Shown: piece by piece, positions 1-14,202 of the stretch
Position numbering within the stretch: the first letter of the stretch is position 1
Layout: the number at the start of each line of letters is the position of its first letter
Origin: Escherichia phage vB_EcoP_PE006
Sequence record: OQ938541.1
Length of the DNA stretch: 64,000 bases
Strand: one strand, 5' to 3'
The notes under the pieces: generated by a model
What the model was told of the DNA's origin: nothing
Database searches by the model: none
Seen by the model: the letters and a program-made list of their open reading frames with translations, nothing else
Made by a program: the position numbers and the translations under genes

Positions 1-762
1 CCTATTGAGGTACAAACCCCTCGTGGTATGGTTCAGGTAAATCCGAAACAATTACCAGCTCGTCACAATCTTCAAGTAGTTGTAGCTATCTCTCCTAATG
101 AGAAAGCAGAACGTGCACAGAAACTGATTAGCTTGAAACAGCTGATTGCAGCAGATGCACAGTTAGCACCTCTCTTCGGTTTGGAGCAAGACCGTTACAT
201 GACTGCACAGATCTTTGAGTTGATGGGTATTAAGGACACTCATAAATACTTACTGCCTCTGGAACAGTATCAGCCTCCTGAGCCGTCTCCGATGGAAATC
301 CTCCAGCTCGAGATGACTAAAGCGCAGGTTGAGAACGTACAGGCTTCTTCTCAGAAGATGATTGCTGATGCATTCGACCAGCGTGAACGTACTACATTCG
401 AACAGCAGAAAGCTGCGGATGAATTAAGTCTGCGTCAGGAAGAGTTGCAGTTCAAGCAAGAAAATGCAGCAGATGCTATGACTCTGGAAAACCGTAAAGA
501 AGATAACAATGCAACTCTGGAACAAGCTAAGCACAAGTTAGCTCTTATGCAACAGCAGGTCCGTCAGTATGAGTCTGTACTGAAAGAATTGCAGATGGTT
601 ATGGAGCATCAGGTTGACCAAGAGAAGATTGTTCAGCAAACTCGTGTTCAGGATAAAACTTTGGAACTCCAGAAGAAAGAAGCAAATGTAACTAAGAAAG
701 AGCAACAAGCTTCTCTCAAAGATTCACGGATTCCAGGCAAACGTCTTGGAAGTAAAAAGTAA
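1..762 (+). CDS. 3' part of a morphogenesis gene whose start lies upstream of the window (possibly portal protein C-terminus)
   Basis: Frame is open from nt 1 (PIEVQTPRG precedes the first ATG at 28); Q/E-rich coiled-coil tail; sits immediately upstream of scaffold and capsid genes. Confidence 0.4.
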   Translation, partial: PIEVQTPRGMVQVNPKQLPARHNLQVVVAISPNEKAERAQKLISLKQLIAADAQLAPLFGLEQDRYMTAQIFELMGIKDTHKYLLPLEQYQPPEPSPMEILQLEMTKAQVENVQASSQKMIADAFDQRERTTFEQQKAADELSLRQEELQFKQENAADAMTLENRKEDNNATLEQAKHKLALMQQQVRQYESVLKELQMVMEHQVDQEKIVQQTRVQDKTLELQKKEANVTKKEQQASLKDSRIPGKRLGSKK

Positions 763-771
763 GGACGTCGA

Positions 772-1008
772 ATGAACATTAGGCATCAATTCAATAAAGA
801 GCACGCCGCCGCTTTGGCGGCTCTCAATCTTAACGGCAGTCTTGACGCAGCATTAGAGGCATTGAAAGAAAGACTCATGACAGAGATAGTTCAAACTGAA
901 CCTCATGAGAATAAGAAACGCGAAGATTGTTATCAAAAGTATAAAATGGTGGGTAGCTTAAAAGAGGTCATAAAAGCTGCTATCAATAGTGCAGGAGATG
1001 TTTCATAA
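772..1008 (+). CDS. hypothetical small protein
   Basis: 78-aa ORF with AAGGA Shine-Dalgarno; stop overlaps the next start. Confidence 0.4.
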   Translation: MNIRHQFNKEHAAALAALNLNGSLDAALEALKERLMTEIVQTEPHENKKREDCYQKYKMVGSLKEVIKAAINSAGDVS

Positions 1009-2093
1009 TGCCACAAGATAATTATATTGACCCGAACGATTTTAAATCTTTCCTCCAACTGGATGACCTGAAAGGTTCTTTTAAAGAAGAGCTTGGTCGA
1101 TTAGAATCTGAACAAGAACCAGAAGTGGACATTGACGATGAGTTCCCGGAAGATACCGGTGACAATTTCGACTTTGATACCGACCTTCTCGGTGAAAGCG
1201 ATGAGCTTAAGTTCGAAGATGAAGATGGTTGGGAAGATCATGATGAGGAAGGCGAAGTCGAAGAAGATGGGGATGACTCTGATGAAGGTGATGAAAACAC
1301 TGAAGTAGAAGAGGAAGACTCAAGCGATGCAGGATATGAAGATGATTCTGCTGACGGTGATGGTGAGGTCTTTGATGTAGACTACGAAACCGTTATCACC
1401 CTTCCTGATGGACGTGAGATGACTATTGAAGAACTCTCCAATGGCTATCTTACTGGTGCTGACATGACAGAACGAGAAACAACTCTTCAGCGTCATATGG
1501 AAGCATTTGAGGAACGTGTAGTAGGTTTGAAGGATGTATTAGAATTAGCGTCTTTAGAAGCAGACCGAGTAATTGAAGATTACAACGGATTTGATTGGGA
1601 CAAGCTTGCAGTAGAAGATCCTCAAGCATATGTTGAAAACAAACGTTTCCTAGAGAAGTACACAGCTCGTCGTAACCAGCTTGAACAGGCTCAGATGCGT
1701 GTTAAGCAGGAAGCAGCAGCTAAAGAACAGGAAGCTTTCCAAGCCAAGAGTGTTGAGTGCGTTAATATTCTGAAACGTGAGATTCCAAATTGGGATGAAA
1801 ACTTATATCAAAACTTAATGCAATATGCAATTGACTTAGGTGCTACTGAAGAAGAAGTATTGAAGGAAAACCGTCCGTCTATTTTCCTAGCTCTCCACAA
1901 AGCATACCAATTTGATAAAGGTAAGCAGCAGGTGATGGCTAAGATTAAACGTCCCGGTGCTCCACGCAAGGTTGTGAAGTCTGATGCTGCAAAGTCTCGT
2001 ACTTCCAATAAGCCAGACAACGCTAAGGTTGCCAAGGCATTCGCAGAGGGTCGCGTTAGTCACGAAGACGCATTCAAATTCCTCGTAGATTAA
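1008..2093 (+). CDS. putative scaffolding protein
   Basis: Strongly acidic D/E-rich N-terminal half, helical C-terminal half; located between portal-like and capsid genes. Confidence 0.55.
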   Translation: MPQDNYIDPNDFKSFLQLDDLKGSFKEELGRLESEQEPEVDIDDEFPEDTGDNFDFDTDLLGESDELKFEDEDGWEDHDEEGEVEEDGDDSDEGDENTEVEEEDSSDAGYEDDSADGDGEVFDVDYETVITLPDGREMTIEELSNGYLTGADMTERETTLQRHMEAFEERVVGLKDVLELASLEADRVIEDYNGFDWDKLAVEDPQAYVENKRFLEKYTARRNQLEQAQMRVKQEAAAKEQEAFQAKSVECVNILKREIPNWDENLYQNLMQYAIDLGATEEEVLKENRPSIFLALHKAYQFDKGKQQVMAKIKRPGAPRKVVKSDAAKSRTSNKPDNAKVAKAFAEGRVSHEDAFKFLVD

Positions 2094-2134
2094 TCGACAA
2101 ATTAATTATTTAATAGTATAGGAGCTAACATAAC

Positions 2135-3196
2135 ATGGCTAATCCAACTTTATTTGTATCGTATGACCAGAATGGTAAAAAACTTTCTTTTGCTAACTGG
2201 ATTTCTGTTCTGTCCCCTCAGGATACTCCGTTCGTATCTATGACCGGTAAAGAGTCTATCAACCAGACTATCTTTAGCTGGCAGACCGATGCACTGGCAA
2301 GCGTTGATGGTAATAACGCACACGTCGAAGGCTCTCGTGCTGAAGACGGTGAAATGAAACCGACTGTTATCAAGTCTAACGTTACTCAGATTCTGCGTAA
2401 GGTTGTTCGTGTTTCTGACACTGCTAACACCACCGCTAACTACGGTCGTGGTCGTGAACTGATGTATCAGCTGGAGAAGAAAGGTAAAGAGATCAAGCGT
2501 GACCTCGAGAAAATCCTTCTGTCCGGTCAGGCTCGTACCGACGTTCTGGCTGACCAGTATCTGACTAACTCCGCAGCTGATCCGACTCAGATTGGTAAGA
2601 ACGACACCCATGCAGCTCGTAAGACTGGTGCATTCCAGTTCCTGTGTGCTCACGGTGGTCTGGCTGGCGGTGTTGTTGACAAGACCAAGAATGGTCCTGC
2701 TGACCCGGATACCGGTGCAATCACTGTTAAAGTTGCACAGAACGCATCTAACCCGGCTACTAACATCGGCTTTGATGAAGCAGATATCTTTGACATGACT
2801 CTGCAACTGTACACCGCTGGTTCTGAAGCAGATATCATCATGATTAACCCGGCTCATGCTAAGATCTTCGCTGGCCTGCAAGAAAATACTCAGGGTTCAC
2901 GTAAGCGTATCTTTGAGAACACCAAGCAGTTCATCTACGAAGTTAACAGCATCACTGACCCGCTGGGCCAGAGCTACAAAATCATCGTTAACCGTTGGAT
3001 GCCTACCGATGCAGTTTACTTCTTCCGTAGCGCTGACTGGACTCAGATGGTTCTGCGTGCTCCGAAACGTACTGAACTGGCTAAAGACGGTTCTTACGAG
3101 AAGTGGATGATTGAAATGGAAGTTGGTCTGCGTCACCGCAACCCGTATGCTTCCGGTGTTCTGTTCACTGCTGCGGGAAAGGCGGTGGCGGCGTAA
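2135..3196 (+). CDS. major capsid protein
   Basis: 353 aa; strong SD (TAGGAG); highly biased codon usage (GCT/GGT/CGT/GTT); followed by hairpin terminator; position after scaffold gene. Confidence 0.75.
   Translation: MANPTLFVSYDQNGKKLSFANWISVLSPQDTPFVSMTGKESINQTIFSWQTDALASVDGNNAHVEGSRAEDGEMKPTVIKSNVTQILRKVVRVSDTANTTANYGRGRELMYQLEKKGKEIKRDLEKILLSGQARTDVLADQYLTNSAADPTQIGKNDTHAARKTGAFQFLCAHGGLAGGVVDKTKNGPADPDTGAITVKVAQNASNPATNIGFDEADIFDMTLQLYTAGSEADIIMINPAHAKIFAGLQENTQGSRKRIFENTKQFIYEVNSITDPLGQSYKIIVNRWMPTDAVYFFRSADWTQMVLRAPKRTELAKDGSYEKWMIEMEVGLRHRNPYASGVLFTAAGKAVAA
3175..3181 (+). promoter_or_regulatory. -1 programmed ribosomal frameshift slippery heptamer G_GGA_AAG
   Basis: GGGAAAG sits 4 codons before the capsid stop; the -1 frame is open from here to 3723 and has no start codon before 3280. 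Confidence 0.5.
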
Positions 3197-3723
3197 CAGT
3201 AGATACTATAACTGTTAGTCCTTCGTCGGTTGCAAGCCTTCCGACGGGGGCTACTCAGCAGTTTACAGCTACAGCACAAATGAGTGATAGCTCCACATCA
3301 ACAACTGGATTTGTTTGGTCCGTTGAGGGTGGTGGGGCTATTTCTGTTTCTGGACTGTACACTGCACCGAGTGCGTCGCAAGAAACCCCGATTACAGTGA
3401 AAGCTACTAAAGGTGGTAAATCTGGTACATCTACGATCTCAGCTATTGCTGACCCTGAACCTACCCTTGTTAGCCGAGGTCCGATTTCAGGGAAGGTGGG
3501 TGGATCAACAACCGCATTCTCTACTATGTTTACAGCAACAAACTCTACCGGAAGTGACTATACTTTTGAGGTAACTCCTCCGGAAGCGGGCACTGTTAGT
3601 GCAGCTGGTCTTTTGACTCTTGCTGATACTGCTACGGGTGCAGTCTCTGTTACAGCTACACACGAGACTAAACCTCTTGTAACAGCCACTTGTGAATTCA
3701 CAGGTGTTACCCCCAAAGCCTAA
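3178..3723 (+). CDS. capsid C-terminal extension made by -1 frameshift (two Ig-like Big_2-type domains)
   Basis: -1 frame translation continues KGGGGVTVDTITVSPSSVASLPTGATQQFTATAQ..., Big_2-like strands; the ATG at 3280 lies mid-domain. Confidence 0.5.
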   Translation, partial: KGGGGVTVDTITVSPSSVASLPTGATQQFTATAQMSDSSTSTTGFVWSVEGGGAISVSGLYTAPSASQETPITVKATKGGKSGTSTISAIADPEPTLVSRGPISGKVGGSTTAFSTMFTATNSTGSDYTFEVTPPEAGTVSAAGLLTLADTATGAVSVTATHETKPLVTATCEFTGVTPKA

Positions 3724-3728
3724 AACTA

Positions 3729-3758
3729 AAGCTGCCTTCGGGTGGCTTTTCTTGTTTT
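3729..3758 (+). terminator. rho-independent terminator after capsid gene
   Basis: AAGCUGCC-UUCG-GGUGGCUU stem-loop (with G-U pairs) followed by UUCUUGUUUU. Confidence 0.6.
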
Positions 3759-3780
3759 AAGACCTATACAAGCTAGTGTG

Positions 3781-3789
3781 TAATGTATA
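3781..3789 (+). promoter_or_regulatory. TAATGTATA promoter-like element
   Basis: Exact TAATGTATA 34 nt upstream of the ATG at 3823, just downstream of the terminator. Confidence 0.45.
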
Positions 3790-3822
3790 TTCTTTGTCTA
3801 CATATAACAAGGAGGACAACCT

Positions 3823-4575
3823 ATGGCGATGCCTGAAGTGCAAAACCCGATTAACACGTATGGCTGGCTTAAGAAAGCTGTTGCCTTGTGGGCCGATCGA
3901 GACGATGATGAATTTGTTAATCAAATTCCAAACTTTATTAACTTTGCAGAGAAAGAGATTTATCGTAACTTACGTATCCCTCCTCTGGAAAAAGAAGTGT
4001 ATTTAGATATTAAAGATGGAGTAGCTTACATTCCTCCTGATTACTTAGAAGCTCAGTGGATGATGAGAGCCAAAGATGGTACAATCTTCCAAGTAACATC
4101 TCCTGAAGAGATTAGCTATCGTAGACAGCATGGAACAATTAACCCATCTCACTGGAATAACCAACCTGTTAACTTTGCTCGTTTCGGTAGTCGTTTCATT
4201 TTCTACCCTAGTATTGAAGCAGATACTCCTGTTTATCCTGATGATGGAAGTCCTTTGATTCCAGCAGAAAACTCAGTCATTCTTAGCTATTATGCAGACC
4301 CACCGGAGTTCCATGAAGATACAGATACCAGCGCTATTCTTACTATTGCACCAGAACTTCTTCTGTATTTCACTCTACGTCATGCTTGCTTGTTTGTTCA
4401 AGATGATAACGGAGTTCAGAAATGGTCTGCATTAGGAAAAGCTATCCTTGATGAAATGGTAGAGCAGAATAAGAAACAAGAGTACTCAGGTTCACCTATC
4501 GCAATTCCGAATAACATGACTCGACTTCAGAGCAGCTTGCCTGACATTTATGGTATTCGTACTTCTCGTGTATAA
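3823..4575 (+). CDS. hypothetical virion protein
   Basis: 250-aa ORF with AAGGAGG SD, first gene after the capsid terminator and promoter element. Confidence 0.5.
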   Translation: MAMPEVQNPINTYGWLKKAVALWADRDDDEFVNQIPNFINFAEKEIYRNLRIPPLEKEVYLDIKDGVAYIPPDYLEAQWMMRAKDGTIFQVTSPEEISYRRQHGTINPSHWNNQPVNFARFGSRFIFYPSIEADTPVYPDDGSPLIPAENSVILSYYADPPEFHEDTDTSAILTIAPELLLYFTLRHACLFVQDDNGVQKWSALGKAILDEMVEQNKKQEYSGSPIAIPNNMTRLQSSLPDIYGIRTSRV

Positions 4576-4584
4576 GGAGATAAT

Positions 4585-7365
4585 ATGATCGTTTATAATA
4601 ACCAAGCACCTGATGCAGTGAATAACGTTGGGCAGTTTGGTGCTACTGAAGGCTCTATCGGAGCTTACAAGCAAGCAGCAGAATATGCAGCTGATTCTAA
4701 ATATTGGGCACTGCTAGCGGAGTCTAAGTTTGGTACAATTGATGATTTAATCGCTGAAGTAGAACGTCTATATCAACAAGGTGTTCTGATGAAGCAGGAT
4801 ATTGAAGATCTTAAGCAGGATTTTATAGATCAAGATGCTCGTTTGATGACTCTGATTGCTCAAACTAATGCGGCAGTATCTGATGCAAACAACGCAGTTG
4901 CTTTAATTAATCAGAAACTTATTGAAGTTCAGAAGCAACTCGATGTTCTGTTGGGAATGTCCGTTGACGTAACTACACTTCCTCCGGGAACCCCAGCTAC
5001 TGGTTCTTTTAATCCGACCACTGGTGTAATCTCTTTAGGTATTCCAGAAGGCGATCCCGGAAAGGATGGTTCTGTTAAGGATTTGGATACAGCACCTACC
5101 GGTGTTCCAGAGTTAGGCGACTTAGGTTTCTACGTTGACAAAGATGACAATACTGTCCACAAAACTACTCTAGAGAGCATTGCTAACTTAATCCCATCTG
5201 TTCGTTCTGTTTCTGTTAACGAGGGTCCAGCTCTTGATGGAGAAGTTGCTCTGACAATTAACAAGAATACAGTTGGTTTAGGGAACGTTCTGAACGTTGC
5301 TCAATATAGCCGTCAAGAGATTAACGATAAGTTTGACAAAACTACCAAGACATACCAATCAAAAGCAGAAGCAGATGCTGACGCTCAATATCGTCAAGTT
5401 GGCGAGAAGGTCTTAGTTTGGGAAGCTACTAAGTATGAATTCTATACGGTTGCTGCCGACAAAACACTAACCCCTGTTAAGACTGAAGGTAGAATCCTTA
5501 CTGTTAACTCTCGCTCTCCAGACTCAAGTGGTAACATTGATATCACGATTCCAACAGGAAACCCTTCTCTGTATCTCGGCGAGATGGTAATGTTTCCTTA
5601 TGACCCGACGAAGAATATCTCATACCCAGGGGTTCTTCCTGCCGACGGTCGTCTGGTGTCAAAAGAGTCTGCTCTTGACTTAGGCCCATCTCTTGTTAGT
5701 GGGCAGCTACCTGTTGTCTCTGAAACAGAATGGCAGGCTGGTGCTAAACAATACTTCTCTTGGGGTAAGCTTGCGGATGGCGTAACTGATGCAGATTCCA
5801 CCAATTTCATCAATATCCGACTACCTGACTGGACTGGTGGAGAGGCAATTCGATCTCCAGATTCTACTAAAGACAGATCATATAAAGGTAGTGTTCAGAG
5901 TCAGATACCTTATGTAGTTACCGTCAATAATCAATCTCCTGATGAAGTCACAGGTAATGTCAGCATCACTAAAGAAATGATAGGGGCAGCCAGTTCTGGA
6001 GATAACTCGGATATTACATCATTGACTGGATTGACTACCGCTCTGTCTATCACGCAAGGAGGTACTGGGGCAACTACTAAAGAACAGGCTCGTATAAACT
6101 TGGGGGTTAGCAGCATAGTTAATGACGGTAGTTCACAAACTACCGTAAGCTCTCCAAATGGTAACACCATATTGGCAGTTCCTAATAACGCTGGGCAGTG
6201 GGGGGTTATCCAATGGAACGGGTCATCCTACGACAACGTGCCGCTGAATATCATAGGGGGTGGTACTGGAGCAACAACCCTAACCCAAGCCCGGTCTAAT
6301 TTTGAGGTTGACAGACTAGTTCAAGGGGAAGCAGAAACTGCTCTGTGGAGTGAGGATAGGTCAAATAAAATCGTTCTCTGGGGTACTGATAATAGCGTAG
6401 AGTGGGGTTGTTATGATAATAAAAACGCTAAATGGAATGCCCTCGGGCTAGGAAAGGGTGGTACTGGAGCAACAACAGCATCTGGTGCTAGGACCAACCT
6501 AAACGTCGACAGAGTTAACCAAGAGCCTACTTCTACAAGAATGTGGTCAGCAGATAAAAGTTTTTACTTTTTTGTAAATGACAACAAAGATTGGGGTGTG
6601 TGGGATGCAACTCTGAATAAATCTATCCCTCTCCATATTGACAAAGGTGGTACAGATGCATCTGATCCTTGGACGGCTACCCATAACCTGAAAACATTCT
6701 CTCAGAAAACAGCTCGATTTGTTCCAGGGGACAATCCGTTGGATATTTTTTGGGCAAACTCTTATGGGTTTCTTACAGGACAGTATGAGCAAAGCTTAAC
6801 TGGCCCTTGGATGGATGTTACCAGTTTTGACAACAAAGCAAGGATGCAGTTGATTGGGTTTTATGGTAGCTCACTCGGGACTAGTGGTTTTGCTTACAAA
6901 GTATTTGAGCCTAATGATAATACTTGGCTTCCCACTCGTATTGTAAAAGATTCTGGTAACACCACTATCGACGTTAACGGTTTCATAAAAGCTGCCTCTC
7001 CAATTGTAGACATCTTTCATGATGGAGCTTTTAAAACCAACCACGAAGCAGAGGGCGTTTCTGTAGAACGTATTTCTGTTGGTGAATACCTTGTCACCGG
7101 TTGCTTGGGTACTAATAGTGACAAAGGATGGGGCGGTGTTGATGGAGGGTTTGAAATACCTTTAGATAGGAATAAACAACCTCGAATCTGGCTTGACTAT
7201 GAGATTAAAGAAGATGGGTCTATCCTAGTCAAGACGTATCATAGAGAACACCCTAATGCTCCTAAATTCGCACAGAATATCATAGAAGGTGTATCTGACG
7301 GTGACCCAATTGATATTCCTGCTGATGCGTTCATTTCGGTTCGTGTTGAGATGCCTTCTGAGTAA
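4585..7365 (+). CDS. tail fibre protein with tail-fibre repeats
   Basis: Four copies of GGTGATT..AR.NL.V type repeat (QGGTGATTKEQARINLGV, GGGTGATTLTQARSNFEV, GKGGTGATTASGARTNLNV, KGGTDASDPW), as in side-tail-fibre repeat proteins. Confidence 0.7.
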   Translation: MIVYNNQAPDAVNNVGQFGATEGSIGAYKQAAEYAADSKYWALLAESKFGTIDDLIAEVERLYQQGVLMKQDIEDLKQDFIDQDARLMTLIAQTNAAVSDANNAVALINQKLIEVQKQLDVLLGMSVDVTTLPPGTPATGSFNPTTGVISLGIPEGDPGKDGSVKDLDTAPTGVPELGDLGFYVDKDDNTVHKTTLESIANLIPSVRSVSVNEGPALDGEVALTINKNTVGLGNVLNVAQYSRQEINDKFDKTTKTYQSKAEADADAQYRQVGEKVLVWEATKYEFYTVAADKTLTPVKTEGRILTVNSRSPDSSGNIDITIPTGNPSLYLGEMVMFPYDPTKNISYPGVLPADGRLVSKESALDLGPSLVSGQLPVVSETEWQAGAKQYFSWGKLADGVTDADSTNFINIRLPDWTGGEAIRSPDSTKDRSYKGSVQSQIPYVVTVNNQSPDEVTGNVSITKEMIGAASSGDNSDITSLTGLTTALSITQGGTGATTKEQARINLGVSSIVNDGSSQTTVSSPNGNTILAVPNNAGQWGVIQWNGSSYDNVPLNIIGGGTGATTLTQARSNFEVDRLVQGEAETALWSEDRSNKIVLWGTDNSVEWGCYDNKNAKWNALGLGKGGTGATTASGARTNLNVDRVNQEPTSTRMWSADKSFYFFVNDNKDWGVWDATLNKSIPLHIDKGGTDASDPWTATHNLKTFSQKTARFVPGDNPLDIFWANSYGFLTGQYEQSLTGPWMDVTSFDNKARMQLIGFYGSSLGTSGFAYKVFEPNDNTWLPTRIVKDSGNTTIDVNGFIKAASPIVDIFHDGAFKTNHEAEGVSVERISVGEYLVTGCLGTNSDKGWGGVDGGFEIPLDRNKQPRIWLDYEIKEDGSILVKTYHREHPNAPKFAQNIIEGVSDGDPIDIPADAFISVRVEMPSE

Positions 7366-7405: not shown

Positions 7406-9526
7406 ATGTCTAGAGAACTAATGCCTAAATCTGGCATAATGATGCCTCATGTAGTTGTAACCAGAGATGCGGCTGTTGTCGGTGTTTCTACTGTAGATGG
7501 ACAGGCTGGTGCTGTTGACCTTACTGGAAAGTATTTACAGAAAACCGATGCGGCTGCTACATACCAAACTAAAGCAGAAGGTGCATCTAAAGATTTTGTA
7601 CTGGATTCAATTCAACCTATTATGTCTGGTGCTTTATTCAGAGCAGACCCTTGGGTTGTTAACGACACCCCATTCCGATCTACTGGAGCTAACGGTGTAG
7701 AATCAGTTGATATGATGAAAGTAACCCCTGATAACTCAATCAAGATTGGTAGTTATGCCTCTTCAGTTCAAGGTGTAGAGATTCATTCTGCTGGTCGTCT
7801 TCAGGTTGTTGACCAGAATGATTCTGGGGTAGAAACTAAGTATCCGGTTTATTCTAAACGTTATCGTCCTGAGATTGAGGATTTGCCTTTTGCTGCAATT
7901 GGTTCTTATGTTAAAGATTCTAAGGGTCGTACTGTTGGGGTTACTCGTACAGGGATTAACTCTGATATCAAACAACTTACCCAGAAGGTAACTTTCACTC
8001 AACCAGTTACCGTTCCTGATGCAGTTGGGGATTATGATGCAGTTACTTTGAGACAGCTTCGTAATAGTGGTGGCGGTTCTGGTGGTCCTACAATGAGTGG
8101 TATATCTAACTTCGGTATTGGTGATTTCCACTTACGTGACAGTCGAGCTTTTATTCCAGCTTTTGAAGTAGTGTCTGACGGACAGCTTTTGAACCGTGCT
8201 GACTATCCAGACCTTTGGGCATACGCTCAATTGCTGTCTCCTATTGAAGACTCTCTGTGGTTGTCTGATAAATTTCAACGTGGCAGATACTCAAAAGGTG
8301 ATGGTTCTACTACATTTCGTGTTCCGGATAGGAATGGTGTTCAGGAAGGGTCTATTCGGGCTTTATATGGTAGAGGTGATGGTGGCTCTTCTACTACTAA
8401 TGGAGCTATCTTTGATTCAGCTGCCCCTAACATAACAGGCGGTTTTGAAATCGTAACAAACACTACCGTACTTGAGAATGCTGATCTTGAAGGGGCAATA
8501 TTTGGTGCGCGGAAAGGGTACAAATATGCCCAATTGAATACTATTGAACTTCCTTCTTCCGGTGATATATATCCCAAACAGATGCGGATTGACGCGTCAC
8601 GTTCAAGCCCTATCTACGGGGCGTCCTATGACGAGATTATGGGTCGTAACTTTGTAGGTGTTTGGACTATTCGTGCTCATGGTGGATTCACAGCAGCTAA
8701 CACTTCTTGGTCTGTTATTAACAGCGATGCAGATAAACCTAGCAGCGGAACTTCTGTAAGTGGTGGGTCAATTCTCTCCGAGTATAAAATAGGAACTGAA
8801 GTTGAAGGTTATGCGTCTTTTAGGATGGTGGGAACTATCGGTGCTACTTATGCTGCTCGTGTAACCGTTTTTAATAAGTCTTCAGGAGCCAACGAAACCT
8901 TCGATTTTGGAAGTGATGGAAACTTAAACATTCCGGGAAGTTTGCGTACTAACGAAGGTGACGTCATCGCTAAGAGTCAACTGATATCTCAAGGAGGTCG
9001 GATAGTTCTTATAGGTAATAGTAATCAAAGCCAATCTTTTGTTGAATTTAAGAGCAACAATGGTTATACTGTGAATTCAAGAGTTTATTCTGAGCGTGAT
9101 GGCGAACTCACCATATCAACATCTACAGCTGGAGCTAATCAGAAATATTTTCAATTTCTTAAGGATGGTAGTGCTACAAGCTCTGGTGGCTGGATCCACT
9201 CTTCTGATATGAGAATTAAAGAGAATATTAAACCAATAGAAAACCCTCTGGAAAAGATGAAAAACATCAAAGGTGTTTCTTGGAAGCTTAGAAACGGGGG
9301 TAAGATTGGTTTTGGTTTCATAGCTCAAGATGTTGAAGTAGACTTCCCTGATGCGGTATCTATTTCTGGTGATATGGAGATGGAAGATGGGTCTGTAGTT
9401 AAGGGTGTAAGATCGGTTGATACTTATGGTGTTTCCGCCGCTTTACACCACGAAGCTATTCTTGAACTTATGAAACAGATCGAAGACCTTAAGAAAGAGA
9501 TAGCAGAACTTAAATCTGGTAAATAA
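7406..9526 (+). CDS. tail fibre/tailspike with C-terminal intramolecular chaperone (peptidase S74-like) domain
   Basis: C-terminus SDMRIKENIKPIENP...GKIGFGFIAQDVEVDFPDAV matches the SDxRxK ... GFIAQ auto-cleaving chaperone signature. Confidence 0.8.
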   Translation: MSRELMPKSGIMMPHVVVTRDAAVVGVSTVDGQAGAVDLTGKYLQKTDAAATYQTKAEGASKDFVLDSIQPIMSGALFRADPWVVNDTPFRSTGANGVESVDMMKVTPDNSIKIGSYASSVQGVEIHSAGRLQVVDQNDSGVETKYPVYSKRYRPEIEDLPFAAIGSYVKDSKGRTVGVTRTGINSDIKQLTQKVTFTQPVTVPDAVGDYDAVTLRQLRNSGGGSGGPTMSGISNFGIGDFHLRDSRAFIPAFEVVSDGQLLNRADYPDLWAYAQLLSPIEDSLWLSDKFQRGRYSKGDGSTTFRVPDRNGVQEGSIRALYGRGDGGSSTTNGAIFDSAAPNITGGFEIVTNTTVLENADLEGAIFGARKGYKYAQLNTIELPSSGDIYPKQMRIDASRSSPIYGASYDEIMGRNFVGVWTIRAHGGFTAANTSWSVINSDADKPSSGTSVSGGSILSEYKIGTEVEGYASFRMVGTIGATYAARVTVFNKSSGANETFDFGSDGNLNIPGSLRTNEGDVIAKSQLISQGGRIVLIGNSNQSQSFVEFKSNNGYTVNSRVYSERDGELTISTSTAGANQKYFQFLKDGSATSSGGWIHSSDMRIKENIKPIENPLEKMKNIKGVSWKLRNGGKIGFGFIAQDVEVDFPDAVSISGDMEMEDGSVVKGVRSVDTYGVSAALHHEAILELMKQIEDLKKEIAELKSGK

Positions 9527-11184: not shown

Positions 11185-14100
11185 ATGGCGCTGTATCCAA
11201 TAAAGTCGTTAGGTGCTGTAGGCGTTATCGCTGATCAGGCTCCGACAGACTTAGCTCCTAATGCTTTCACTAATGCTATAAATGCTCGATTTGTTGAGCA
11301 GAGAGTATTTAAGACGGGGGGCAATGCCCCTCTTTCTTATGTAGACGAAGATAAGGATTTAACCCCTCTGTCTTTCGTGTCTATGCCTTTCGATTATTAT
11401 AGCGCAGGTAATAGCTTTCTTGTTGTAGGTACGGATAAGAAGTTATATAAACTGACAGATGAAAGCTTGACTGACATTAGCCGTAAGGTTGCTACAGTCA
11501 CTAAGAAGGCTTCTGCCTCAATTAAGATTTATCCAGTTGTTTCTCAGATTGTTCCTAAAGAATCAACCATCTCAATGAACTTTAATCAGACTAAGAGTCT
11601 AGAAGTTTCTCTTCTTCCTGCTGATGCTAACAATACCGATCTTGTTTGGGAGGTTAGTAATTCAACCTATGGGAGTGTTACAGTAGACCCTAGTGATTCT
11701 AAACTTGCTACTCTAACATCTTTTGAGAGAGAGGGTAATCTTGTAGTAACCATCTCTACTGCTGATGATTCTGTAGTGGCTCAGATTGCTGTGAACATTA
11801 TAGATGGTGATTCAGGCATCTTCTTGAGTCAAGATACTGTTACTATCCGTAAAGGAGGGACTACCACTCTTACAGCTGTTACTGGTAAAACCCCTGTAAC
11901 TTGGTCCAGCAATAACGCTTCTATTGTATCCGTGACCCCTAACGCTAATTCTCTAACTGCTGTTATTACTGCTAATGGTGAGGGCAATGTAACAATAACT
12001 GCTGATAACGGAACGAAAACTGCTTCTTGTGAGGTTGTTTCCATCCCTCAGATTGACAGTATCACTTTGAGTCAGTCAGATGTGATCGTTAGTAGAGGTT
12101 CTCAATACATTTTAACTGCTACCCTTTCTCCTGCTAATGCCCCTAATCAAAACATTACTTGGACCTCTTCTAATCCAAATATTGCAACAGTATCAGGGAC
12201 CAGTACACAAGGGACGGTCAACGCCCTACTCGCTGGCTTTACTGAGATTACGGCTACCACTGAAGAAGGTAACAGAGTTGCTGTCTGTACTGTACGAGTA
12301 GACTTAGCTGGAAGGGCGATGAGAACAAGTGCTATGGCATTTGCTGCACCTGCATCAGAACCAATTGAATCACAAGAGGAAGAAGTAGTAACTCCTCCTG
12401 AAAGTGAAGAGACGATTTATTTTGCTGAGCCTACGTCTGGTATTGACACATCTGGTATGTACGAAGGTAACAGCTTCTACGACTACTCTAACGTGAATGA
12501 TATTGAAGGTTTTGCAAGAGCTTCTTTACTGGCAACCCCTTTGTCATCTGTAACATTAGATGTTGTCAGCGCCTCTCTTGATGTTGGTGAAGAGATTGTT
12601 ATCACAGCTACAGCCTCTCCAGAAGGTGATTATTCCTATCAGTGGTCTGTGGATAAGACAGGTTATGTTTCTACAACTTCAGTTACTGGTAAATCTATCA
12701 AACTGGTTGCTCTTCGTAAAGGAGAGATTAATGTAACATGTACTGTCAGCCAAATGACTCAGAAGGATTACGACGCTTTTGATGACTACCCTTGGTATCA
12801 CGCTGTTATCTCTAACTGTGCAGTTGCTACAACTCACTATGAAACTCCTCAGGTAAAAGAATTCGAATCAGAATACTTTGTAGACCTTCCGGGATGGGGT
12901 GAGCAAACAGTTGTTGATAATGATGGAAACCCTTCAGTCAAGAAGTTTAACTGGAAATGTGAAAGAGTAAGATCTTTTAATAACCGTCTTTTTGCTCTGA
13001 ATATGAGAGAGGCTAATGCTTCTGGTGTTACCACTAACTACCCACTTCGTCTTCGTTGGTCTAACTTTGCCAATGAGAACAAAGCTCCTACACTGTGGGA
13101 TGACTTTGCCTACGATCGGGTTGTGTCTTCGGACTTGGCTTCTAACATCGTAGGACAGACTCAGGCTTTAGAAAATGGATATGCTGGTTACATTGACCTA
13201 GCGGACTCTAACGGCAGCTTAATTGATATCTTACCTCTTAAAGATTACTTGTTCGTTTATACAGAGTTTGAAACGTATATTGGTTCTCCGACTAATAACA
13301 CATACCAACCTCTGATGTTCAAGAAACTCTTTAATGACTCTGGTATCCTTGCTCCTGAGTGTGTGGTTGAAGTAGAAGGTAGCCACTTCGTAGTTACTCA
13401 GAACGATGTAATCCTACACAATGGTGCAACCAAGAAGTCAATTGCATCTAACCGTGTTAAGAACATGCTGATTAATGAGGTGTGTCTGGTTAACCCTCTA
13501 GCAACTCGAGTACACTTGCATCAGGATAAGAAAGAAGTTTGGGTTCTCTATGTAGGTCCGGGAGAGCCGAAAGAAAGCTTCGCTTGCACTAAAGCTGCTG
13601 TATGGAACTACGAGTTTGATACTTGGTCTTTCCGTACTATCCCTTATGCTCAGTGTATCGGTCTGGTTGATCCTCCTGTTCTAGAGAGAGGTCCAATCTG
13701 GTCTGACTTCCAAGAGATCACTTGGGATGACCCATCTATCAAAGAACTCGTTTGGAGAAAGGATGCAACAAACTTTAGACAGAGGGTTACGATAGTAGGT
13801 TCGTTCTTGAGGGGATTCTACCAAGTGGATGTAGGTGCTCTTGATTATTTCTATGACAGGCTTAATGATAAGGTTATAGAAAAACCACTGGAGATGAGAT
13901 TAGAGAGAACTGGTATGGATTTTGATAACATCACTAACGAATGGAATCAGAAACATATCAATAGGTTCAGACCTCAGACGACAGGTTCCGGTACGTATAC
14001 TTTTGAAGCAGGTGGTAGTCAATTCTCTAACGAGTATGGTCATCCACACACATCTAAGACGTATACGATTGGTGTTGATAGGCATGTCTCGGTGAGACTG

Positions 14101-14202
14101 AACCATCCATACCTTTTCTATAATGTTATAGATAATGATGTTAACAGTAATGCTGCTATCAATGGGTTAACGATAGAGTTTGCTGTTGGCGGACGGAGAT
14201 AA
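11185..14202 (+). CDS. large structural protein with tandem Big_2 Ig-like domains
   Basis: 1005 aa; repeated Big_2 signatures (VTWSSNNASIVSVTP..., NITWTSSNPNIATVSGTSTQGTVNALLAGFTEITATT...). Confidence 0.6.
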   Translation: MALYPIKSLGAVGVIADQAPTDLAPNAFTNAINARFVEQRVFKTGGNAPLSYVDEDKDLTPLSFVSMPFDYYSAGNSFLVVGTDKKLYKLTDESLTDISRKVATVTKKASASIKIYPVVSQIVPKESTISMNFNQTKSLEVSLLPADANNTDLVWEVSNSTYGSVTVDPSDSKLATLTSFEREGNLVVTISTADDSVVAQIAVNIIDGDSGIFLSQDTVTIRKGGTTTLTAVTGKTPVTWSSNNASIVSVTPNANSLTAVITANGEGNVTITADNGTKTASCEVVSIPQIDSITLSQSDVIVSRGSQYILTATLSPANAPNQNITWTSSNPNIATVSGTSTQGTVNALLAGFTEITATTEEGNRVAVCTVRVDLAGRAMRTSAMAFAAPASEPIESQEEEVVTPPESEETIYFAEPTSGIDTSGMYEGNSFYDYSNVNDIEGFARASLLATPLSSVTLDVVSASLDVGEEIVITATASPEGDYSYQWSVDKTGYVSTTSVTGKSIKLVALRKGEINVTCTVSQMTQKDYDAFDDYPWYHAVISNCAVATTHYETPQVKEFESEYFVDLPGWGEQTVVDNDGNPSVKKFNWKCERVRSFNNRLFALNMREANASGVTTNYPLRLRWSNFANENKAPTLWDDFAYDRVVSSDLASNIVGQTQALENGYAGYIDLADSNGSLIDILPLKDYLFVYTEFETYIGSPTNNTYQPLMFKKLFNDSGILAPECVVEVEGSHFVVTQNDVILHNGATKKSIASNRVKNMLINEVCLVNPLATRVHLHQDKKEVWVLYVGPGEPKESFACTKAAVWNYEFDTWSFRTIPYAQCIGLVDPPVLERGPIWSDFQEITWDDPSIKELVWRKDATNFRQRVTIVGSFLRGFYQVDVGALDYFYDRLNDKVIEKPLEMRLERTGMDFDNITNEWNQKHINRFRPQTTGSGTYTFEAGGSQFSNEYGHPHTSKTYTIGVDRHVSVRLNHPYLFYNVIDNDVNSNAAINGLTIEFAVGGRR

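Follow-up and report, generated by a model that had tools for sequence, protein, structure and literature searches.

Overlapping reading frames at the capsid locus

The window, by which we mean the whole 64 kb stretch of Escherichia phage DNA analyzed here, carries genes in the order portal C-terminus, small ORF, scaffold, major capsid protein, extension ORF, terminator, adaptor, tail fibres, lysozyme and nozzle. Its region 2000-3900 shares 97.7% nucleotide identity with Escherichia phage SDYTW1-F1-2-2_3 and about 96% with phages NJ01 and 172-1, all three of which are classified in Gordonclarkvirinae; Kuravirus. Scaffold-capsid-adaptor synteny is present at the capsid locus. On sequence grounds, the window corresponds to the late region of a Kuravirus, a phiEco32/SU10/NJ01-type E. 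coli podophage with a prolate head. The features of the locus are as follows:

28..762, C-terminus of the portal, followed by a small ORF
1008..2093, scaffold, preceding the major capsid gene
2120..2124, plus strand, Shine-Dalgarno sequence AGGAG of the major capsid gene, which would serve both the short and the long form
2135..3196, plus strand, major capsid protein gene in the zero frame (HK97 fold, SU10_MCP family; 353 aa, 38.8 kDa)
3115..3193, plus strand, overlap in which the zero and -1 frames are both open and within which any shift must happen
3175..3181, plus strand, slippery heptamer G_GGA_AAG, in X_XXY_YYZ register with the capsid frame
3194-3196, plus strand, zero-frame capsid stop TAA
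3181..3723, plus strand, -1 frame extension of 180 codons plus the stop TAA at 3721-3723, matching PHROG 13745
3193..3444, plus strand, Ig-like domain 1 (Big_2), extension residues ~5-88
3280..3282, plus strand, ATG from which many GenBank records begin a separate 'Ig domain protein' of 147 aa, a start judged here not to be genuine
3457..3714, plus strand, Ig-like domain 2 (divergent, Big_2-like), extension residues ~93-178
3728..3759, plus strand, intrinsic terminator directly 3' of the extension ORF (9-bp stem, TTCG loop, T-rich tail)
3823..4575, adaptor (SU10_adaptor, Pfam 5e-29)

The identity of the zero-frame product is well supported. The capsid ORF 2135..3196 matches the Pfam family SU10_MCP (5.7e-77), the major head protein family PHROG 1328 (4.4e-118) and the SU10 major head protein in the PDB (7z45, E 3.7e-233), and the encoded protein shares 98% identity with the SU10 capsid protein, for which a cryo-EM structure exists (PDB 7z45).

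The capsid gene ends with the codons ACT GCT GCG GGA AAG GCG GTG GCG GCG TAA. The placement of G_GGA_AAG four codons before the capsid stop, proposed when the DNA was read without any comparison, is borne out: GGGAAAG at 3175-3181 is in register, with four sense codons left before the TAA. This is the only in-frame X_XXY_YYZ heptamer within the last 150 nt of the capsid gene. The -1 frame, open from position 3115, runs to its stop at 3721-3723; its sequence includes CCGKGGGGVTVDTITVSPSSVASLPTGATQQFTATAQM, and after the slip it reads GGGGVTVDTITVSPSSVASLPTGATQQFTATAQMSDSS.

Across the 17 late-gene ORFs we found nine in-frame canonical heptamers, and only the one in the capsid gene precedes a long -1 ORF (180 codons, against 0-27 after the other eight). 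The motif GGGAAAG itself occurs twice in the window, compared with 7.05 +/- 2.5 occurrences expected from shuffles. The second copy, at 45637 on the plus strand, is antisense to a minus-strand ORF and was rejected as a relevant site on that ground.

The extension ORF: fold and mode of expression

The extension as a whole matches PHROG 13745, 'Ig domain containing protein' (6.5e-76). A Pfam Big_2 match spanning extension residues 7-79 agrees with the earlier description of the open frame 3115-3723 as Big_2-like. Against the Pfam gathering cut-off for Big_2 (PF02368) of 22.8 bits, the score is 33 bits for the whole extension and 25.8 bits for domain 1 alone, while domain 2 alone reaches 18.4 bits (E 0.0021), which is under the cut-off. 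An AlphaFold2 model of the extension, built from an alignment of 29 homologues, has a mean pLDDT of 96.2 and comprises two all-beta sandwich domains (~aa 5-88 and 93-178). The predicted strands of domain 1 span E7-E86, and the pLDDT of domain 2 is above 96.

In a Foldseek search with this model, the best PDB match was the tandem Big_2 region of Leptospira LigA (8gyr, E 1.4e-11, TM 0.55), and the matches also include the Ig-like nozzle domains of SU10. A phmmer search aligned domain 1 with residues 349-418 of a 448-aa PDB chain named 'Major capsid protein' (6qvk_1A, E 1e-3), which we take to be phi29 gp8, the matched region being presumably its BIG2 domain. Domain 2 gave a weak match (E 0.34) to the C-terminal part of a chain named phage tail tube protein pb6 (7qg9), which we assume to be the T5 Ig-like domain. 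The modeled fold indicates that the extension is two tandem Ig-like domains, the second of which is divergent. The two domains named in the sequence-only reading thus stand, on the strength of the AlphaFold2 model and the LigA match, with domain 2 lying under the Pfam cut-off.

Joining capsid residues 1-349 to the extension gives a predicted fusion of 529 aa and 56.0 kDa, within the ~55-57 kDa that had been anticipated for the long capsid species. Its coding sequence would be 2135..3181 joined to 3181..3723. At the predicted junction, FTAAGK is followed by GGGGVTVDTITVSPSSVASLPTGATQQFTATAQ, and the predicted tryptic junction peptide is GGGGVTVDTITVSPSSVASLPTGATQQFTATAQMSDSSTSTTGFVWSVEGGGAISVSGLYTAPSASQETPITVK.

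Alternatively, the Ig-like ORF could be an independent gene that starts at ATG 3280 and encodes a free decoration protein of 147 aa and 14.5 kDa, which would bind the capsid non-covalently. An ORF 3280..3723 does exist and is labeled 'Ig domain containing protein' in NJ01 and 172-1. The SU10 cryo-EM paper (PMC9509320) takes a separate gene for granted and suggests that gp10 may be a minor capsid protein lost in purification. The properties of the putative start nevertheless argue against this explanation. No Shine-Dalgarno sequence is found in the sequence upstream of ATG 3280, gcagtttacagctacagcacaa, unlike the neighboring capsid, adaptor and fibre genes, which carry AGGAG or AAGGAG. The corresponding position is a lysine codon (AAA/AAG) in the clade of phiEco32, SU7, LAMP, 4E8 and IMG/VR sequences. 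The methionine encoded at 3280 sits 27 residues inside Big_2 domain 1, so that a product starting there would miss the first 27 residues of the domain, and a scan of the -1 frame upstream of 3280 revealed no ATG, GTG or TTG. The claim that the frame has no start codon until a mid-domain ATG was therefore correct. The independent product from 3280, which the sequence-only reading had set against its own proposal, is contradicted by the missing Shine-Dalgarno sequence, the lysine codon of the phiEco32 clade and the truncation of the domain.

Comparison with relatives points in the same direction. Depending on the phage, the first start-like codon of the -1 frame lies at extension codon 9, 34, 47 or 61, and the annotated starts differ arbitrarily among relatives (a GTG at codon 9, an ATG at codon 34, and others). 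The resulting gene calls begin MSDSS.., MTVSP.., MASLL.. or MFTAT.. and cut the domain at different places. The GTG used as an independent start in the phiEco32 annotation was also rejected, that codon being ATA in the window phage. Over the 33 codons that separate the slip site from ATG 3280, 14 of the 23 differences from phiEco32 fall at third codon positions, and the changed codons comprise 10 synonymous and 8 non-synonymous ones. This third-position bias argues that the stretch 5' of the ATG is translated in the -1 frame, a coding constraint that an independent gene starting at 3280 does not account for.

The transcription unit and the wider capsid family bear on the same question. The intrinsic terminator is found 3' of the extension rather than directly behind the capsid stop, and the capsid mRNA therefore includes the extension. 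A terminator is annotated at the equivalent place in Paul, SU10 and 4E8. In-frame capsid-Ig fusions occur in SeKF_80, BUCT695 and A24 (Grimontviridae), which have two tandem SU10_MCP genes, the second paralog (589, 410 and 361 aa, respectively) carrying C-terminal Big_2 domains. Because this second paralog is an in-frame Big_2 fusion in all three, the arrangement shows the functional unit in the SU10_MCP family to be a capsid protein with a joined Ig-like domain. A free decoration protein of the Hoc or epsilon15 gp10 type would have its own start and ribosome-binding site; the extension ORF has neither a Shine-Dalgarno sequence nor a conserved ATG. Taken with the evidence from the start codon, this leaves an independent gene very unlikely.

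Conservation of the slip site and candidate RNA elements

The heptamer GGGAAAG is invariant in 15 Kuravirus-group loci and two Privateervirus loci, and in the former it lies at the same position throughout. The codons that follow it vary among loci (GCG GTG GCG GCG; GTG GCG GCG; TTG GAT CCG CAA). The -1 ORF is kept open in 14 of the 15 Kuravirus-group loci. The exception is the SU10 record, which retains the heptamer; according to our alignment, a 1-nt insertion 24 nt after the heptamer, near position 8420 of KM044272, breaks its -1 ORF. Since only the capsid heptamer has a long -1 ORF, GGGAAAG is rare in the window, and both heptamer and ORF are conserved, a chance origin of this arrangement is not plausible.

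The Ig cassette changes fast. Its identity to the phiEco32 counterpart is 66%, compared with 97% for the capsid, and the number of domains ranges from 2 to >5. When changed codons of the extension were counted, synonymous and non-synonymous ones numbered 66 and 61 against phiEco32, and 52 and 53 against Paul; the synonymous count equals or exceeds the non-synonymous one in each comparison except Paul.

More distant members depart from the canonical site. Lahexavirus LAh_6, Serratia KSP100 and several IMG/VR contigs are without the canonical heptamer. Their capsid genes carry G/A_GUA_AAG at a distance of one or two codons from the stop, with an Ig-like ORF following in the -1 frame, and the lysine codon of A_AAG is all that is conserved. 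The overlap of the two frames in KSP100 is so short, at 13 nt, that the shift must take place at GUA_AAG.

RNA structures were sought by RNAalifold on 10 Kuravirus sequences and by per-sequence folds. Two hairpins lie downstream of the heptamer:

3194..3217, plus strand, 7-bp AU-rich hairpin UAACAGU-N10-ACUGUUA beginning at the zero-frame stop, candidate weak stimulator
3220..3250, plus strand, 10-bp hairpin CCUUCGUCGG/CCGACGGGGG, 38 nt downstream of the heptamer (z = -2.18)

The first hairpin begins 12 nt after the heptamer in the window and 9 nt after it in the phiEco32 clade, the spacing expected of a canonical stimulator being 5-9 nt. Its stem is essentially invariant across the Kuravirus alignment, the outermost pair being lost in LAMP, and it offers no covariation evidence because compensatory variation is absent from the stem. 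The second hairpin is too distant for a classical stimulator; two to three of its pairs show double changes, which split two clades only and coincide with amino-acid changes. In the RNAalifold result the heptamer also lies within the loop closed by a CUGCUGC/GYGGCGG stem, which was already noted for SU10 (Mirzaei 2014, PMC4281155). We rejected this stem as a stimulator, as the ribosome would have melted it before the slip. No upstream Shine-Dalgarno-like motif occurs in the 30 nt 5' of the heptamer, and Rfam and tRNA scans of the window returned nothing. No convincing, validated stimulatory element emerged from the RNAalifold (n=10) and per-sequence analyses, and frameshift efficiency may for this reason be low.

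The heptamer and extension might instead be an evolutionary relic, with negligible slippage and only the 353-aa form mattering, as is apparently the case in the sequenced SU10 stock. Such a reading draws on the missing strong stimulatory structure and on the SU10 record, in which the -1 ORF is broken although the phage remains viable, with a capsid of uniform appearance. Against a relic stand an intact 180-codon ORF in the window, a high-confidence fold model of its product, an ORF open in 14 of 15 loci, and synonymous changes that, Paul excepted, are at least as numerous as non-synonymous ones. Furthermore, G_GGA_AAG by itself is enough for slippage of a few per cent in E. coli; for lambda G-T, 3.5% slippage at this heptamer is quoted in PMC9965538. 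We consider a relic extremely unlikely.

The long form could also arise by another route, either transcriptional slippage by RNA polymerase or termination and reinitiation at the TAA. Nothing specific favors these routes, although the zero-frame stop does lie only 13 nt after the heptamer. For transcriptional slippage, the homopolymer runs (only G3 and A3) are too short. Reinitiation would have to proceed without a start-like -1-frame codon near the stop, where the GTG of phiEco32 is replaced by ATA. The element that is invariant across genera is, moreover, the heptamer, specifically A_AAG. We therefore assign these routes next to no probability.

All sequence-level predictions of the proposed frameshift fusion hold, and we put the probability of a programmed -1 frameshift in the capsid gene, yielding a minor long capsid form with two Ig-like domains, at about 0.9. 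Under this mechanism, most ribosomes on the capsid mRNA would stop at TAA 3194 and release the 353-aa major capsid protein. In a minority, the P-site tRNA-Gly (GGA to GGG) and the A-site tRNA-Lys (AAG to AAA) would slip back by one base at 3175-3181, and translation in the -1 frame would then run to 3723, producing a protein of 529 aa in which capsid residues 1-349 are followed by a Gly-rich linker and then by two Ig-like domains of the Big_2 type. Because its HK97-fold body is complete, this long form should assemble together with the short one. The Ig-like domains would presumably be displayed on the exterior of the head as part of a minor capsid species, where they may play a role in weak adhesion. 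Given that the SU10 head contains 715 capsid subunits (PMC9509320), slippage of a few per cent would, by our estimate, place tens of long subunits in each virion.

Capsid frameshifting in related phages

The capsid frameshift is already known for the phiEco32/SU10 group, and the window represents another member, with nothing new biologically beyond that. The exact case has been published, which the sequence-only reading did not recognize. For SU10, the site was described 'as in phage phiEco32', and mass spectrometry listed forms of 38.5 and 55.4 kDa (Mirzaei 2014, PMC4281155). The YF01 study (2023, PMC9965538) describes the capsid of 'YF01 and other group phages' as present in two forms through GGGAAAG slippage, with extended isoforms of ~500-550 aa that bear an Ig-like domain. 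In the GenBank record of phage Paul (MN045231), the joined CDS is annotated 'Frameshift at GGGAAAG; Frameshift in PhiEco32 major capsid protein product as well (PMID: 18294652)'. In the Proteus phage Privateer (2021, PMC7881722), two SDS-PAGE bands and MS peptides were reported, and the long form was detected in virions; that paper cites Savalia 2008, to which later work credits the phiEco32 description, and Mirzaei 2014 for the phiEco32 and SU10 frameshift. For SU10 itself, cryo-EM revealed neither density for a minor capsid protein nor a long-form band on SDS-PAGE (PMC9509320, PMC9965538), an outcome that PMC9965538 attributes to a premature stop in the -1 frame. A review (PMC5009743) describes frameshifting that adds C-terminal Ig-like domains to phage structural proteins (T3 capsid, Lactobacillus A2 and Listeria phages).

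The closest counterparts of the window locus are phiEco32 gp11/gp12, SU10 gp9/gp10, Paul and YF01, which belong to the same genus and have capsid proteins 96-99% identical. The phiEco32/SU10 group shares with the window an identical GGGAAAG at an identical position, a homologous -1 extension with two Big_2-like domains, and the order scaffold, capsid, extension, terminator and adaptor. The differences are modest: four codons separate heptamer and stop in the window but three in the phiEco32 type, because 3 nt are inserted within the Gly-rich linker; identity between the extension and that of phiEco32 is only ~66%; and the extensions of Paul and YF01 are much longer than that of the window (545 aa). 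Privateervirus is further removed, with an SU10_MCP-family capsid ~56% identical to that of the window. It has the same heptamer, but the stop follows immediately and the extension consists of an I-set and a Big_2 domain.

The analogies drawn in the sequence-only reading, namely the lambda G/GT heptamer, T7 10B and Ig-like decorations of phages, are appropriate. In E. coli, the lambda G/GT tail assembly chaperone likewise arises by tandem slippage, at an identical G_GGA_AAG. There, in contrast to the window, the shift occurs in a tail chaperone gene whose product is not a virion component and acts in assembly rather than display. In T7 (10A/10B) and T3, as here, a -1 ribosomal frameshift late in the major capsid gene produces a minor long form, and the T3 extension is likewise Ig-like (PMC5009743, PMC9965538); the capsid family and slip sites are, however, unrelated, and the T7 extension is short and not Ig-like. 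Both phi29 gp8 and the long capsid paralogs of the 7-11-like phages resemble the window product in carrying a C-terminal Big_2 domain on an HK97-fold capsid protein, but they are in-frame fusions in which recoding is unneeded. The Ig-like domain is carried by every subunit in phi29 and by a separate paralog in SeKF_80, BUCT695 and A24.

Most GenBank records of this phage group still give the extension its own entry, named 'Ig domain containing protein' or 'hypothetical protein', and place its start arbitrarily, which probably explains why the feature looked unannotated from sequence alone. For annotation, the correct feature is the joined CDS of 2135..3181 and 3181..3723.

The mildly new material is comparative only, and consists of distant members with a non-canonical slip and others with a duplicated capsid gene. 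By group, G_GGA_AAG is the route in Kuravirus and Privateervirus, and a duplicated capsid gene that in the 7-11-like phages, BUCT695 and A24. From these comparisons we tentatively suggest, as a possibility we regard as the less probable one, that the SU10_MCP family may have reached a subset of Ig-bearing capsid subunits in three ways, through the G_GGA_AAG shift, through a slip at G/A_GUA_AAG and through a duplicated in-frame gene. If the stoichiometry or position of the long subunits on the prolate head is functionally tuned, these phages would provide a useful model for asking why Ig-decorated subunits are held at sub-stoichiometric levels in phage capsids.

Divergence of the capsid extension and frequency of its slippery motif

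The extension of the major capsid protein (window 3181-3723) changes far more quickly than the capsid body (2135-3196): it shares about 66% amino-acid identity with its phiEco32 counterpart, compared with 97% for the body. Its length among Kuraviruses ranges from 178 to 545 aa, with 264 aa in Ptacy1479 and 545 aa in Paul. This variation indicates that Ig domains are gained and lost in a cassette-like manner. Dinucleotide shuffles of the 64-kb window predict 7.05 ± 2.5 copies of GGGAAAG; only two are present, at 3175 and at 45637, the latter antisense with respect to an ORF on the minus strand. This distribution is consistent with avoidance of the slippery sequence outside the capsid gene.

Ig-like domains at the capsid loci of relatives

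In Grimontviridae relatives, duplication of the SU10_MCP gene is an alternative to frameshifting. The paralogs lie in tandem, and Big_2 domains are in frame at the C-terminus of the second (589, 410 and 361 aa in SeKF_80, BUCT695 and A24, respectively):

L023 1484-4270, tandem SU10_MCP paralogs, Salmonella phage SeKF_80
L022 2501-4781, tandem SU10_MCP paralogs, BUCT695
L024 2492-4596, tandem SU10_MCP paralogs, A24
L013, tandem SU10_MCP paralogs

An X_XXY_YYZ heptamer was not found in Aeromonas LAh_6, Serratia KSP100 or loci L009-L012. In all of these, G/A_GTA_AAG is conserved one to two codons before the capsid stop. I-set or Big_2 domains are encoded in the -1 ORFs that follow, which the records call “tail protein” or “major tail subunit”:

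L021 about 3410-3690, G/A_GTA_AAG and -1 Ig-type ORF, Aeromonas LAh_6
L025 3283-3693, G/A_GTA_AAG and -1 Ig-type ORF, Serratia KSP100
L009-L012 about 4405-4930, G/A_GTA_AAG and -1 Ig-type ORFs

The arrangement suggests a non-canonical slip centred on A_AAG; in KSP100, the zero and -1 frames overlap by just 13 nt.

An interrupted -1 frame in the SU10 record

The SU10 GenBank record carries a single-nucleotide insertion 24 nt 3' of the heptamer, which cuts the -1 ORF to 11 codons. With this insertion, the conserved hairpin becomes a nearly perfect palindrome of 10 bp (-26.5 kcal/mol):

L017 (KM044272) about 2565-2575, 1-nt insertion, column 66 of alignment A2

The insertion agrees with the uniform appearance of the capsid in cryo-EM and is at odds with the 2014 proteomics table, which lists a fusion of 55.4 kDa (PMC4281155). 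It reflects either an error in sequencing or a mutation particular to that stock.

Repeats and Ig-like domains in the tail genes

At least four copies of a GGTGATT-type motif occur at intervals along the long tail-fibre ORF, whose only Pfam match is a C-terminal Phage_tail_C_2 domain:

Window 4585-7365, tail-fibre ORF, repeats ITQGGTGATTKEQARINLGV, IGGGTGATTLTQARSNFEV, LGKGGTGATTASGARTNLNV and IDKGGTDASD

A Foldseek search with the capsid extension as query lists the SU10 nozzle domains among its matches. Big_2 domains also occur in the nozzle-protein homologue (window 11185-14202; Pfam 1.7e-24), so vB_EcoP_PE006 uses one type of Ig-like module for head and tail alike.
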